Assembly: GCA_965228735.1 (NCBI GenBank)
Contig: OZ245838.1
Location: 6,656,001 to 6,720,000, forward strand
From: Planctomycetota bacterium
GTDB lineage: Bacteria; Planctomycetota; UBA1135; UBA2386
Reading direction: 5' to 3'
DNA: 64,000 bases
Shown here in pieces: positions 15,264 to 62,527 of the stretch (its first letter is position 1; every line of letters begins with the position of its first letter). A model generated the notes under the pieces. That model was not told the DNA's origin. It saw nothing but the letters and a program-made list of their open reading frames with translations, and ran no database searches. The translations under genes and the position numbers were made by a program.

Positions 15264-16885
<1,622 letters not shown>

Positions 16886-16892
16886 CCGAGAG

Positions 16893-16927
16893 TGTGCGAA
16901 ATCTGCACAGAGTGCGGATCCCGCGCG
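16893..16927. promoter_or_regulatory. Tandem palindromic activator-binding sites (UAS)
   Basis: TGTGC-N7-GCACA (16893-16909) and a degenerate copy AGTGCGGATCCCGCGCG (16911-16927). Confidence 0.65.
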
Positions 16928-16991
16928 CCTCGCCGGTTGCGAAGGTGTTCGTAAAGCTATGGAATAAAGATGCTTATGGATTCTCTCATCG

Positions 16992-17007
16992 TGGTACCGG
17001 GATTGCG
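16992..17007 (+). promoter_or_regulatory. Sigma-54 (-24/-12) promoter
   Basis: TGGTACCGGGATTGCG: GG-N10-GC spacing, matches TGGCAC-N5-TTGC; predicted +1 near 17018. Confidence 0.8.
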
Positions 17008-17020
17008 ATGGAACGGCTCG

Positions 17021-18853
17021 ATGACGCCCCTCACCCAGCAACTGCGCACCGGCCTGCTCGCCATCGGGTTCGGCGCTGCGGGCCTGCTGGGGGATGCACG
17101 CGGACAGTCGCCCGCCGCCTCCGGCCCGCAGGCTGCACCGCGGCTCGTCGACTCGATCGAAGCGCCGTTGCTCTACCTTGCTCTCGGCGGCAAGACCCGC
17201 GGCGGTGGAGCCCTCGGCGGCGGGGCTGCTGGCGCGGCATCTACGGGTAGGGCGGCCGTGCAGCGGCTGCTCGCCGACCCGGCGCTCGATGCGCTGCTCG
17301 ACGAGTCCCTGCGCGATGAGCCCGCCGCGACGCGGAGCAGCTCGACCGGCCGATCGCTCGCGCTCGTCCGCGGCGTTCTCAGTCGGTGCGCTGGCGAGAT
17401 CGAAGTCGCGATGACGGGCGTCGTGCCCGGGATCGGTCGACCCCTGCTCGTGCTGCGCGCCGAACTGCAGCCGGAACAGGCGAAGAACCTCGACGCCGCG
17501 CTGCGGCCGCAGCCGCAGGTCAGCGGGGGCGGCAGCCGGCTCGCGGCGAACCACCGCAAGATTCGTGGGCAGCAGACCTACGCGATGCTCGGCGAGGACG
17601 GTCGGCTCGCGACCGGGATCGGCCGCCAGGTCGAGCTCGCGGTCGTCGGCAGCGACCTGCTCGTCACGAACGACGCGACGGCGATGGAAGAGTTGCTCGC
17701 GCCGCAGCGCACGACGGCCAGTCCGCGCGCGCTCTCGGGCAACGATCGCTTCGTCGCGCTGAAGCAGCGCATCGCCGCGCCCGCGGGCTCGTTGCTCGTC
17801 TACGGCGACTGGGCCCGGCTCGGCCGGCGCCTCGGCGGTTCGGGGCTGACCGCCCAACTGCTGCTCGACTCCGGTCTCGGTTCGGCGCGCAGCGTGATGG
17901 CTGCGTTGAGCTGCCAGCCGACCGAGAACCGAGCTGCAGCCGATCGCTCGACGGCTGCCGGGACGCGCTTCACCGCGACCGTGCTGCTCGATTTCGAGCA
18001 GGACAACCCCAACGTGCGGGCGCTGCGTGCGCCGGGTCGCAAGGCGCCGCCGTTCTGGGATTCGCCGGGCATCGACGGCTGGCTCACGGCCGCGCTGTCG
18101 GTCAAGCCGCGGCAGCTCGCGCGTGATCTGCCGGGTGGTGGCCTCGGTGGGCTCGTGCTCGCGATGGACCTGCCGGTCGTCGCGACGCGTTCGCCGCGCG
18201 GCGCGCGGCTGTTGCGTGACCTGCGCAACTCCCTCGAGGCCTTCGGTCTCGACTTCAAGCGCAACGTGCTCTCCCGGCTCGGCACGCGGGGCACGGTGCA
18301 GCTGCTGTTCCGGCGCGGCGCCGACGGCGAGGCCGCGACGCGTATCGAGTCGATCTACGCCGTGCGCGCCACGAGCCGCACGGCGGCGAGCAACCTCTTC
18401 ACCGATCTGCGGCGCGCGGCCGAACAGCACGGCATCGGCAAGGTGCTGGCGGGTCGCGACCGGCCGGGTCGTGACAACGTCGACGTGCTCGAGCTGCGCG
18501 TGCACCCGGAAGACGAGCCGACGTGCGTCGCGGTCGCCTCCGACGCGGTGCTCGTCGCGTTCGACGCGACGTCCATCGACGAGTTCCTCACGGAACACCG
18601 CGCCGTCGCGCGGCAGCGCGGCAAGCGGAACTCGCAGGTGGGTGCAGTCGTAGAACGAATCGGAGGGCGAGAGGTCAGCGGCCTCTTCGACCTCGACTTC
18701 ACGCCGTGGCTCGAACGCTTTGCCGACCTGCTCGGGGAACGTGGTGTCGCGGTCGATCTCTCCGGCATTCCGTCGCGGCACGTCGGCTACCTCGACCTGC
18801 AGCCGCGGGACGGCGGAACCATCATTCGAATCTGTGTGCTGTCGTCGCGGTAG
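17021..18853 (+). CDS. Secreted hypothetical protein (possibly DUF3352-like)
   Basis: Signal peptide ending ARG|Q; host-like codon usage; family call tentative. Confidence 0.75.
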   Translation: MTPLTQQLRTGLLAIGFGAAGLLGDARGQSPAASGPQAAPRLVDSIEAPLLYLALGGKTRGGGALGGGAAGAASTGRAAVQRLLADPALDALLDESLRDEPAATRSSSTGRSLALVRGVLSRCAGEIEVAMTGVVPGIGRPLLVLRAELQPEQAKNLDAALRPQPQVSGGGSRLAANHRKIRGQQTYAMLGEDGRLATGIGRQVELAVVGSDLLVTNDATAMEELLAPQRTTASPRALSGNDRFVALKQRIAAPAGSLLVYGDWARLGRRLGGSGLTAQLLLDSGLGSARSVMAALSCQPTENRAAADRSTAAGTRFTATVLLDFEQDNPNVRALRAPGRKAPPFWDSPGIDGWLTAALSVKPRQLARDLPGGGLGGLVLAMDLPVVATRSPRGARLLRDLRNSLEAFGLDFKRNVLSRLGTRGTVQLLFRRGADGEAATRIESIYAVRATSRTAASNLFTDLRRAAEQHGIGKVLAGRDRPGRDNVDVLELRVHPEDEPTCVAVASDAVLVAFDATSIDEFLTEHRAVARQRGKRNSQVGAVVERIGGREVSGLFDLDFTPWLERFADLLGERGVAVDLSGIPSRHVGYLDLQPRDGGTIIRICVLSSR

Positions 18854-18910
18854 CGCGTTGCACACCTGACGACCCGCTCGCGCGGGGCTCTTTCACAACA
18901 ACAGGCATTC

Positions 18911-19264
18911 GACGTCCACGCCGGGCAACCGGCGCGTTCGTCACGGGTGCATGGCTGGTGCTCGTCACACGCCGCTCGAGATCTGGGGCAGGCAGGGCGG
19001 TGTGCGTCGGTCTTTCGCGTGTGTTGCGCGAACCATGCATCCGTTCCTTATTTGGCGCGTGACCTTCGGGGGTCCGATCGGCGTCCCGATTCTGGGGCAG
19101 GCTAGGGACAACGGTCGACCAGTCGCACAAGTGGTGCGAGGGGGTCACGCGCCACATTTCTCATTCTCGGCTCGTCCTTCGAGCCCTTCATCATTCCAGC
19201 TCGGTCTTCCAGCTCGGGGACTTCGTCGCGAGGACAGGCGCGGCGGGGTCCCCGGCTACTTTTT
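18911..19264 (+). ncRNA. Candidate structured ncRNA: two 102-nt three-way junctions with a shared TCTGGGGCAGGC loop, ending in a terminator
   Basis: Units 18943-19044 and 19053-19154 have the same architecture but different stem sequences; wobble pairs are G-U on the + strand; 450-nt gap with no credible CDS. Confidence 0.7.
19211..19264 (+). terminator. Intrinsic terminator
   Basis: GGGGACTTCGTCGCG-AGGACAGG-CGCGGCGGGGTCCCC stem (with G-U) followed by GGCTACTTTTT. Confidence 0.75.
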
Positions 19265-19303
19265 GGGCGTTGATCGTCGGCCGCGATCGCGACAATCGTC
19301 GGC

Positions 19304-20764
19304 ATGTTCCTCGCACTGGATCAGGGCACGACGAGCAGCCGCGCGATCGTCTTCGATGCGGGCGGTGCGATCCGCGGTTCGGGTCAGCAGGAGTTCGCGC
19401 AGCACTTCCCGGCGCCGGGGCACGTCGAGCATGACCCCGACGACATCCTGCAGAGTCAACTCGCGGCCGTAGCCGCGGCGCGGCGCGAGGCCGGCGAGCC
19501 CGCGATCACGGCCATCGGGATCACGAACCAGCGCGAGACGGTCGTCGTGTTCGATCGCGCGACGGGGCGGCCGATCCACCGCGCGATCGTCTGGCAGGAT
19601 CGGCGCACGGCAGGGGAGCTGCAGGCGCTCGCCGAGCGCGACGGCGCGGCCGAGCTCGTGCGCACCCGCACCGGGCTGACCCTCGATCCCTACTTCAGCG
19701 CCAGGAAGATCGCCTGGATCCTCGATCACGTGCCCGGGGCGCGCGCGCGGGCCGAGCGCGGCGAGCTCGCGGCCTGCACGGTCGATTCGTGGCTGCTCTG
19801 GCATCTGACGAAGGGCGCCGTGTTCGCGACCGAGCCGAGCAACGCGTCGCGCACGAGTCTGTTCGACCTGCAGACGGGCGACTGGAGCGATGCCCTCTGC
19901 GAACTCTTCGCCGTGCCGCGCGCCGTGTTGCCCGAGGTGCGCCCGTCGGCGGGCGAGTTCGGCGCGGGCGAGCTGCTCGGCGGCGCGCCGGTCTGCGCGA
20001 TGCTCGGCGACCAGCAGAGCGCGTTGTTCGGTCACGCCTGCACGAACATCGGTAACAGCAAGTGCACCTACGGCACCGGCGCGTTCGCGCTCACGAACGT
20101 CGGGACGGCGCCGGCCGATCCGGCGCCCGGCGTGCTGTCGACCGTCGCGTGGCGGCTCGGTGACGTGACGACGTTCGCGCTCGAGGGCAGCGTGCTGGTG
20201 TGCGGCGCGGCGATCCAGTGGCTGCGCGACCAGCTCGGTCTCGTCGCGAGCGCCGCGGATACGGAAGAACTCGCGCGTTCGGTGCCGGACAGCGGCGGGA
20301 TCGTGTTCGTGCCCGCGTTCGCCGGCCTCGGCACGCCGCACTGGGATCCGACCGCGCGCGGCGCGATCGTCGGAATCACCCGCGGGACGTCGAAGGCGCA
20401 CCTCGTGCGCGCGGCGCTCGAAGCGCTCGCGCTGCAGGTCGACGACGTGCTCACGGCGATGGCGGACGGCGGCGGCAGCGGCGAACTGCACGTCGACGGC
20501 GGCGCGACGAGCAACGGCCTGCTGCTCGAGATCCAGGCCGCGTTGCTCGGGCGCCCCGTCGTGCGTCCGGCGCTGCTCGAAGCGACCGCGTTCGGCGCGT
20601 TCCGCATGGCGATGCTGGGAGCCGGCGCCGCGGCGCTCGACGAACTGCCGCGATTGCCGGGCGAGCCGACCCGCGTCGCCCCGGGCGATGGTGTCGCGAT
20701 CGACATCGCGGAACTGCGCGCGCGCTGGCAGAAAGCGGTGCCGCGCACGCGGGGTTGGGTCTGA
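19304..20764 (+). CDS. glpK: Glycerol kinase
   Basis: LDQGTTSSRA, GITNQRET, AIVWQDRRT, GDQQSALFG, KCTYGTG, VDGGAT. Confidence 0.96.
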   Translation: MFLALDQGTTSSRAIVFDAGGAIRGSGQQEFAQHFPAPGHVEHDPDDILQSQLAAVAAARREAGEPAITAIGITNQRETVVVFDRATGRPIHRAIVWQDRRTAGELQALAERDGAAELVRTRTGLTLDPYFSARKIAWILDHVPGARARAERGELAACTVDSWLLWHLTKGAVFATEPSNASRTSLFDLQTGDWSDALCELFAVPRAVLPEVRPSAGEFGAGELLGGAPVCAMLGDQQSALFGHACTNIGNSKCTYGTGAFALTNVGTAPADPAPGVLSTVAWRLGDVTTFALEGSVLVCGAAIQWLRDQLGLVASAADTEELARSVPDSGGIVFVPAFAGLGTPHWDPTARGAIVGITRGTSKAHLVRAALEALALQVDDVLTAMADGGGSGELHVDGGATSNGLLLEIQAALLGRPVVRPALLEATAFGAFRMAMLGAGAAALDELPRLPGEPTRVAPGDGVAIDIAELRARWQKAVPRTRGWV

Positions 20765-61096: not shown

Positions 61097-62527
61097 TCAG
61101 GGGAGTTGGGTCAGGAGCGTCGTGTTGTCCGGGGTCTGGCGCAGGAGGTCGACGACGTGGTCGAGGCGTTGGCGTGAGGTGAGGGGGGCGAGGTGCTCGC
61201 GCAGGCGGCGGAGGGCCTGGATCTGGGATTCGGGGAGCAGGGTGTCTTCGCGGCGGGTGCCCGTGCGGAGGACGTCGAGGGCCGGGGCGACGTGTTGGTC
61301 GGCGAGGTCGCGGTCGAGGACGATGTCGCTGTTGCCGCGGTTGTGGAACTCGTCGAGGATCGCGGTGTCGAGGCGCGAGTCGGCGTCGGTGATCGCCGTC
61401 GCGATGAGCGTGAGGGAGCCGCCCTCTTCGCACTTGCGCGCCGCGCCGAACAGGCGTTTGGGCCGCAGCACGGCACCGGCGTCGAGGCCGACGCAGATGA
61501 GGCGGCCGGTCGGGATGATCTCGAGGTTGAGGGCGCGGACGTAGGCGGTCAGCGAGTCGAACAGCAGAACGACGTCCTCGCCCGCCTCGACCATGCGCTG
61601 GGCGCGCGCGAGCGTCATGTCGGCGAGCGCGACATGGCGCGCCGGCGGTTGCTCGAACGTCGTCGCGACGATGTCGGCGTCGCCGCTGCCCGCCGCGTGA
61701 ATGCGGCGCCGGATACCCGTCAGTTCCTCGGGCCGCTCGTCCAGCAGGCACATGTGGACGAACAGGTCCGGGTGATTGAGCCGCAGCGCCACGGCGATCT
61801 CCTCGAGCAATCGGGTGCGGCCGGAGCCGGGCGGCGCGGCGATGAGGACGCGCTGGCCGAGCCCCCAGGGCGCGAGCAGGTCGATCGCGCGCAGGGCCAG
61901 CGACGCGTTCTCGTGGTCCAGCCGCAGGCGGTCGGTCGGCAGGATCGGCGTGCGAGCGCCGAATGGCACGCGCCGGCGCTGCGTCGCGATGTCGCCGCCA
62001 TTGACCGAGTCGACGTGCAGCAGCGCGAAGAAGTTCTCACCCCGCCGCGGCGGCCGCACTGGGCCAGCCAGTCGATGCCCGCTCTTGAGGTTGAGGCGGC
62101 GCACCTGACTCGGGCTCACGTAGACGTCGTCGGGACCGGGCTCGAAGTCGTTGCGGATCGAACGCAAGAATCCGAAGCCGTCGGGGAGCACGTCGAGGAC
62201 GCCCTCGGCCCAGCCGAGTCCCGAGCGCTCGAAGCGGTGCTGCAGGATCGCGAACACGAGCTCGCTCTTGCCGAGGTTGGGAACGACGTCGAGGCCTTCG
62301 TCGTGCGCGAGGTCGAGCAGTTCTTTGGCGGAACGCGCCTGCAGCGCGGTGATGTCGCCGCCGTGGTCCCGCCGCGCCTGCTTCAGCAGTTCTTCGCGCT
62401 CCTCGGCGCTCATGGTCTCCAGGTCCGTCCCGTCGGATCGGCCAGCCGCCGGCTGCCCGTCGGCCTGCGGCCCGCTCGCACGGGACCCTTCTCGGCGCGG
62501 GGCGGGGTTGCGGGACGAGTCGTGCAC
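61097..62527 (-). CDS. rho: Transcription termination factor Rho homolog with degenerate ATPase motifs
   Basis: EGVLDVLPDGFGFLRS, YVSPSQVRR, DERPEE, KRLFGAAR, GGSLT, GTRRE; start could be ATG 62413. Confidence 0.9.
   Translation of the reverse strand: MHDSSRNPAPRREGSRASGPQADGQPAAGRSDGTDLETMSAEEREELLKQARRDHGGDITALQARSAKELLDLAHDEGLDVVPNLGKSELVFAILQHRFERSGLGWAEGVLDVLPDGFGFLRSIRNDFEPGPDDVYVSPSQVRRLNLKSGHRLAGPVRPPRRGENFFALLHVDSVNGGDIATQRRRVPFGARTPILPTDRLRLDHENASLALRAIDLLAPWGLGQRVLIAAPPGSGRTRLLEEIAVALRLNHPDLFVHMCLLDERPEELTGIRRRIHAAGSGDADIVATTFEQPPARHVALADMTLARAQRMVEAGEDVVLLFDSLTAYVRALNLEIIPTGRLICVGLDAGAVLRPKRLFGAARKCEEGGSLTLIATAITDADSRLDTAILDEFHNRGNSDIVLDRDLADQHVAPALDVLRTGTRREDTLLPESQIQALRRLREHLAPLTSRQRLDHVVDLLRQTPDNTTLLTQLP

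Follow-up and report, generated by a model that had tools for sequence, protein, structure and literature searches.

Between the gene for a DUF3352-like protein of about 610 aa (17021..18853, + strand) and a gene for glycerol kinase that begins at 19304, a Planctomycetota genome carries two tandem structured units with the same loop. What kind of RNA is this array, and what may it do? The window, i.e. the whole stretch of DNA analysed, comprises 64,000 nucleotides. A first-pass annotation placed the feature at 18943..19154, proposed selection on RNA structure, and suggested a protein sponge, an array processed into unit RNAs, or a tandem aptamer. In this study, we describe an RNA family that is real, seems not to have been described before, and has an architecture of known type; its boxA-like leader is unusual, and its junction form is confined to one subgroup.

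The coordinates, the stems, and both 12-mers (18982-18993 and 19091-19102) were as annotated. The extent of 18943..19154 was right for the units; the full feature is longer, with a boxA-like element ahead of the units and a third hairpin after them. All parts lie on the + strand. The array is likely located in the 3' extension of the upstream gene. A short predicted hairpin (18873..18886), apparently in a boxB-like position, lies directly 5' of the boxA-like element GCTCTTTCACAAC (18887..18899), which was assigned from the RYTCTTT pattern and its likeness to 23S leaders. Hairpins similar to that at 18873..18886 were noticed by eye in some homologues. A leader hairpin of variable sequence (18911..18942), supported by the predicted fold and by homologues, touches unit 1. 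Unit 1 (102 nt, 18943..19044), delimited by its fold and by an alignment of homologues, is composed of the closing stem P1 (18943-18954/19033-19044), the long arm P2 bearing the motif loop with its conserved core GGGGCAGGC (18985..18993), and the hairpin P3 (19014-19032). It is followed by a pyrimidine-rich linker (19045..19052), a predicted processing site; linkers of this type, 8-11 nt in length, follow the units in homologues. Unit 2 (102 nt, 19053..19154) folds as unit 1, with P3 at 19123-19139 and the loop core GGGGCAGGC at 19094..19102. A third hairpin (17 bp, 19214-19255) carries the variant loop AGGACAGG and is followed by a U-run; the element as a whole (19214..19264) is predicted to be both the terminator and a third copy of the motif. 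The -10-like hexamer GACAAT and the start codon of the glycerol kinase gene (19291..19306) are outside the RNA. The array is single-copy: of the 150 candidates scored in the 7.19-Mb genome, the homologue-built covariance model matched only the two units. Two sequencing runs of DNA type contain the region without change.

The + strand folding z-scores were -3.6 for unit 1 and -5.6 for unit 2; that of the region 18865-19270 was -5.7. The proposal that both units share one fold was supported by an alignment of 63 homologous units, but the single-sequence MFE structure of unit 1 lacks the three-way junction. For the junction formed by P1 (11 bp), P2, and P3, 93.8% of the 1509 cells in the alignment were paired and 20/24 pairs displayed double-sided changes, both counts being inflated by kinship among the units. 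The observed pairing was matched by 0/500 shuffles, and slid controls reached at most 46.6%. RNAalifold independently yielded a nearly identical structure with 19/24 pairs compensated. As had been noted, the wobbles favour the + strand (102 G-U against 32 A-C cells), and this strand folded better than the other in 57 of the 63 units. Unit spacings were 108-113 nt regardless of reading frame, which argues against overlapping ORFs. Selection on RNA structure is hence backed by covariation, strand asymmetry, and frame-independent spacings, and the covariation that the first-pass annotation had wished to see in homologues was found in the 63-unit alignment. The three-way junction is not the conserved core of the family. 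The core is a loop on a stem, and the three-way-junction unit is the form of one subgroup; distant genera have 1-4 plain hairpins of 13-18 bp with the same loop and pyrimidine linkers between them.

The 12-mer had been regarded as invariant. This is true for the present genome only, and the sequence that is invariant across homologues is GGGGCAGGY. Retrieval by P3/P1 sequence alone, blind to the loop, gave 46 distinct stretches; 3 were unrelated, and the remaining 43 units contained GGGGCAGGC in 41 cases and GGGGCAGGU in 2. Most loops were 13-20 nt in size; their 5' part varies, and the core abuts the 3' strand. The two bases 5' of the core were pyrimidines in 102/103 and 94/103 hairpins (3 of these rows being stray matches); hence, pairing to two invariant Gs is kept. 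The loop is probably an RGGRCA hexaloop (GGGGCA in the main form) closed by two pyrimidine-G pairs, a model from which ViennaRNA differs in favouring another register with a GGG triloop. The last hairpin of G025, a member of the family, is reduced to a plain AGGACA hexaloop. Both genus relatives and G025 also have hairpins of the 19214..19264 type; three other loci carry a variant of the terminal hairpin with CGGGCAGGC. GGA is restricted to the variant terminal hairpin of 4 loci. Among 65 loci, one motif copy was present in 10, two in 48, three in 5, and four in 2.

The array is conserved within one Planctomycetota family. When 61 relatives were searched at the DNA level, 11 other genomes had matches, and in 8 of these the match was a true syntenic array. 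A pattern scan of the genome contig collection returned 39 loci, comprising 33 arrays, mostly labelled Planctomycetota, and 6 loci discarded as chance. Under strict filters, the covariance model matched 20/32 genomes of the host family, 0/88 genomes in the other families of the order, and 0/148 other genomes of the phylum. With the addition of a synteny search beside the upstream gene and beside lon, the array was detected in 29 of the 37 family genomes (G000-G036, G000 being the genome studied here). It was not found in G006, whose contig ends inside lon, or in G007, G016, G022, G028, G033, G034, and G035. The hairpin model matched 17/131 non-family genomes weakly, and the 14 matches inspected were single hairpins without an array. 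A loose tandem pattern applied to 17/64 parts of the contig collection gave 120 loci as candidate arrays outside the family; among the 32 of 122 rows considered, the best-folding loci were family members and the others were repeats or chance. Eight viral matches were unrelated repeats.

The first-pass annotation recognised no known family, and this holds against Rfam 15. The covariance models gave no match at gathering score over the window, only 4 sub-threshold ones locally (E 0.95-5.9), and none at E<=0.5 in 7 homologous loci. ARAGORN reported nothing in the window, and SRP RNA, RNase P RNA, tmRNA, and tRNA-Sec are all encoded elsewhere in the genome. No description of this RNA was found in the literature, in which the supplements of motif-discovery papers could hold one; Planctomycetes are not mentioned in the main text of PMC11109978.

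The upstream protein had no Pfam match, and its atlas features match DUF3352 clusters of Planctomycetota. A palindrome, TGTGC-N7-GCACA, is located between a sigma-54 activator gene and the DUF3352-like gene (16893-16909 of the window) and is a possible regulator site. The downstream glycerol kinase contains FGGY domains. In the 65 loci, the gene upstream of the array was DUF3352-like in 50, nifU-like in 8, and other or none in 7. On the downstream side, lon was found in 36 loci and glpK in 21, while the remaining 8 had another gene or none, some of these loci being short. Either flanking gene can thus be lost without loss of the array, which therefore likely acts in trans. A hexamer of the form xAnnnT/C precedes the ATG by a few bases in 18/18 glpK starts read by eye. 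Both glpK and lon seem leaderless, with relaxed -10-like hexamers 4-12 nt before the ATG (19291-19306 of the window and homologues). In G014, G021, and G027, the next gene is convergent.

As a list of features, the first-pass annotation was incomplete on the upstream side, the boxA-like signal (18887..18899) being absent from it. This element has the form of the two 23S-leader sites of the genome. RYTCTTT was present in 30/50 array leaders compared with 0.43% of random 155-nt windows, and a looser boxA form in 43/50 leaders compared with 13% of random windows. A stricter pattern had 19 genomic sites, including both 23S leaders and the array site. In E. coli, the boxA consensus reads UGCUCUUUAACA; rrn, suhB, and CRISPR operons are known to be preceded by boxA (PMC13753749). 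What is expected of a boxA/Nus target was found here: a boxA-like sequence stands before an untranslated RNA, and NusB and two Rho genes are encoded in the genome; NusB binding itself is a prediction. The two genes with a Rho RNA-binding domain are located at 61991-62209 (-) of the window and at G000:C1:681875-682102. In most loci, boxA and the first hairpin begin 8-60 nt past the stop codon, and no sigma-70-like promoter was found in 16700-19400. We infer that the array is transcribed by read-through from the upstream operon under Nus protection.

As the candidate role of the array, we tentatively propose a Nus-protected, processed stable RNA that titrates an RNA-binding protein. The locus is likely a multivalent decoy, which presents GGGGCAGGY loops to its protein on long, sequence-variable stems. 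RNA polymerase would read on from the upstream operon, and NusB/NusE would load at boxA just beyond the stop codon, shielding the untranslated array from Rho. The transcript would end at the last hairpin, and cleavage at the pyrimidine linkers would then release stable units; in this subgroup, the pairing of their 5' and 3' ends in P1 would make the units resistant to exonucleases. Each loop would bind one protein copy and keep the protein off its mRNA sites in the manner of CsrB. Two of the functions suggested in the first-pass annotation, the protein sponge and the processed array, are plausible candidates. In the closed, 93%-complete genome, no match was obtained for Hfq, CsrA (PF02599), TROVE/Ro60 (PF05731), or 6S RNA (RF00013, genome-wide). 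The CsrA and TROVE profiles matched 3/14 and 2/14 control genomes, respectively. With CsrA, TROVE, and Hfq not found, the array is not a CsrB, and a Y RNA is unlikely. The ANTAR profile PF03861 had no match in the genome or in any control genome. The motif was not enriched near start codons (GGRCAGG, 54 observed against 51.7 expected at -60..0), which counts against a sequestered repressor, whose natural sites might lie there. A constant 9-nt core within a loop of 13-20 nt is a trait typical of base-pairing sRNAs too, a point against the decoy.

A base-pairing sRNA of the cuckoo/CcsR kind, with the G-rich loop as the seed for C-rich sites (R-CCUG-Y-CC-Y) in mRNAs or another sRNA, is possible, although we consider it unlikely. 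The architecture speaks for it, since cuckoo RNAs, too, are transcribed together with a conserved gene ahead of them and consist of 2-4 hairpins that present one 9-nt loop motif on differing stems (PMC4615179; PMC8034643). The loop variants (G to A at positions 1 and 4; C to U at position 9) all fit wobble pairing to one 9-mer. In the first 60 coding bases, the complement was mildly above expectation (23 against 16.2 +/- 3.9; 6/100 codon shuffles reached this number). It was not in excess over a Markov background at -60..0 or -30..+30, however, and no conserved pairing target was found in the one genome scanned with home-made gene calls. Pairing targets were sought in rRNA, tRNA, other stable RNAs, mRNA starts, and intergenic loops, and each candidate was eliminated by a shuffle or conservation test. 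A peptide transporter gene contains a perfect 17-nt match that was gone in 3/3 orthologues, so that this candidate was rejected as not conserved, and no accessible intergenic partner stood out among the top 16 of 62 sites. The best duplexes with rRNA, RNase P RNA, SRP RNA, and tmRNA were equalled by 20, 32, 22, and 3 of 60 shuffles, respectively, the last requiring a bulge. Pairing to 23S helix 68 or to tRNA-Asp was not borne out by the genome's own sequences. The motif was absent from the leaders of 2 RRM genes.

Pairing to the initiator tRNA was rejected because the T-stem of this tRNA differs from one array-bearing genome to another, whereas the loop of the array is constant. The genome encodes a second initiator-like tRNA-Met (G000:C1:1865974-1866049 (-)), in which the acceptor stem and anticodon loop are altered. 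Flagellin leaders were rejected as well: the motif was present in 2/46 and in 1/20 further leaders including orthologues, and arrays also occur in 6 genomes in which no flagellin was found. G000 has six flagellin paralogues. Upstream of a flagellin orthologue (G000:C1:3928387 upstream; L460-L471, L477), a strongly conserved element, CCTGAAG...CTCAAG...GCCGAT, was observed; it resembles a sigma-28-type promoter.

The failure to find a surviving pairing target or Hfq was counted in favour of a protein partner. Together with the repetition on rigid stems, the intolerance of change, and the probable hexaloop, the lack of a target leads us to lean towards protein titration over base pairing.

A cis-acting role as 3'-UTR punctuation, in which the hairpins stabilise or process the mRNA of the upstream operon and the loop is a site for a nuclease or stabilising factor, is improbable. 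Its position 8-60 nt after the stop codon in most loci and the DUF3352-like gene upstream in 50/65 would suit such an element. Yet the array remains where that gene is deleted (nifU-like gene upstream in 8/65), is single-copy unlike REP-type elements, and has an invariant loop and closed three-way junctions, neither of which a stabiliser needs.

A selenocysteine mimic, in which P1 copies the acceptor/T helix of tRNA-Sec, P3 copies a SECIS hairpin, and the RNA buffers SelB, is very improbable. A P1 3'-strand matrix ranked tRNA-Sec first of 46 tRNAs, at the 3' strand of the T-stem/acceptor (post hoc p of about 0.003-0.2, depending on the test), GU is frequent in P3 loops, and the genome has 13 UxxC selenoprotein candidates. 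A changed anticodon stem is common to the 8 junction-type genomes with tRNA-Sec read, but this may be one inherited event. The simple-hairpin arrays have no P1 and P3, SelA is present in 60/61 relatives, including all families without the array, the selenoprotein genes have downstream hairpins of their own, and loop pairing to tRNA-Sec ranked only 5th-17th of 46. Two observations on this system stand apart. The tRNA-Sec of these 8 genomes (in G000, C1:2825088-2825186 (-); L342-L369) shows two departures, a U-U mismatch within the anticodon stem and C instead of G at acceptor position 7; in most plain-hairpin genomes and all other families read, the anticodon stem is paired and acceptor position 7 is G. 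The 13 in-frame TGA codons in UxxC (window ~38255 (-) and 12 G000 sites), mostly in thioredoxin-like contexts, are in most cases followed by a hairpin with a G/GU loop, which predicts a large selenoproteome.

A tandem ligand-binding riboswitch for glpK/lon, or a self-cleaving ribozyme, is the least probable reading: riboswitches can have tandem hairpins with conserved loops, and lon or glpK follows in 57/65 loci, but the terminal U-run, the leaderless-looking downstream genes with their own -10-like hexamer, and the three convergent neighbours also disfavour the cis-acting tandem aptamer of the first-pass annotation, and there are too few conserved bases beyond the loop and no Rfam match.

Protein titration may be extended to a stronger proposal, to which we give a low probability in its full form. 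The lineage-wide array would be a new class of Nus-antiterminated, processed stable RNA, in which one subgroup has converted the simple motif hairpins to three-way-junction units with protected ends; the array would titrate a global regulator that binds RNA and has no relation to CsrA, Hfq, or Ro60 (at the outside, SelB), and thereby reveal a further post-transcriptional control system in Planctomycetota. In a genome with no detected CsrA, Hfq, Ro60, or recognisable 6S RNA, a family-wide RNA with an invariant loop offers bait with which the missing partners, protein or targets, may be sought. It would also place a small-RNA array among the few transcripts listed as boxA-protected. The family also presents one loop on two carriers: depending on the genus, a plain hairpin or a closed three-way junction.

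Several known RNAs resemble the array in part. 6S RNA is a rod of about 190 nt with a central bubble, distinct from an array of separate units. CsrB and RsmZ are protein-sequestering sRNAs with repeated identical loops on variable stems and a terminator at the end. The array shares the repeated loop on variable stems and, by prediction, the terminator, and one of its variant loops has GGA. It differs from them in that its main loop is devoid of GGA, CsrA was not found in the genome, and its 1-4 stems are much longer. Yfr1/Yfr2 of cyanobacteria, also lineage-wide with a short conserved motif and with sRNA-sRNA crosstalk as one mode of action, are a looser analogue (PMC6778093); their motif differs, the array copies are in tandem at one locus, and no complementary partner sRNA was found. 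In rRNA operons and CRISPR arrays, a boxA-like element likewise precedes untranslated repeated or structured RNA (PMC13753749). The array is none of the rrn, suhB, or CRISPR operons described there; its stems vary and its loop is constant, in contrast to repeats with unique spacers.

The closest likeness in architecture is to cuckoo/CcsR of Alphaproteobacteria, in which 2-4 hairpins share one 9-nt loop motif on stems of differing sequence; the cluster is co-transcribed with a preceding conserved gene of unknown function and ends at a terminator (PMC4615179; PMC8034643). Processing into units is shown for cuckoo/CcsR and predicted here; release from a 3' UTR by RNase E is a further trait of the cuckoo/CcsR group. 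The cuckoo/CcsR motif is CCUCCUCCC (anti-Shine-Dalgarno), compared with GGGGCAGGY in the array, and the neighbouring gene encodes a small DUF1127 RNA-binding protein (CIN1 subgroup) instead of a large DUF3352-like protein. The two also belong to different phyla, and Hfq was not found here. A boxA-like leader and three-way-junction units are features of the array that the available portions of the cuckoo/CcsR reports do not mention (PMC4615179; PMC8034643). The array is built like cuckoo/CcsR and would work like CsrB, and it departs from each in the defining motif or partner.
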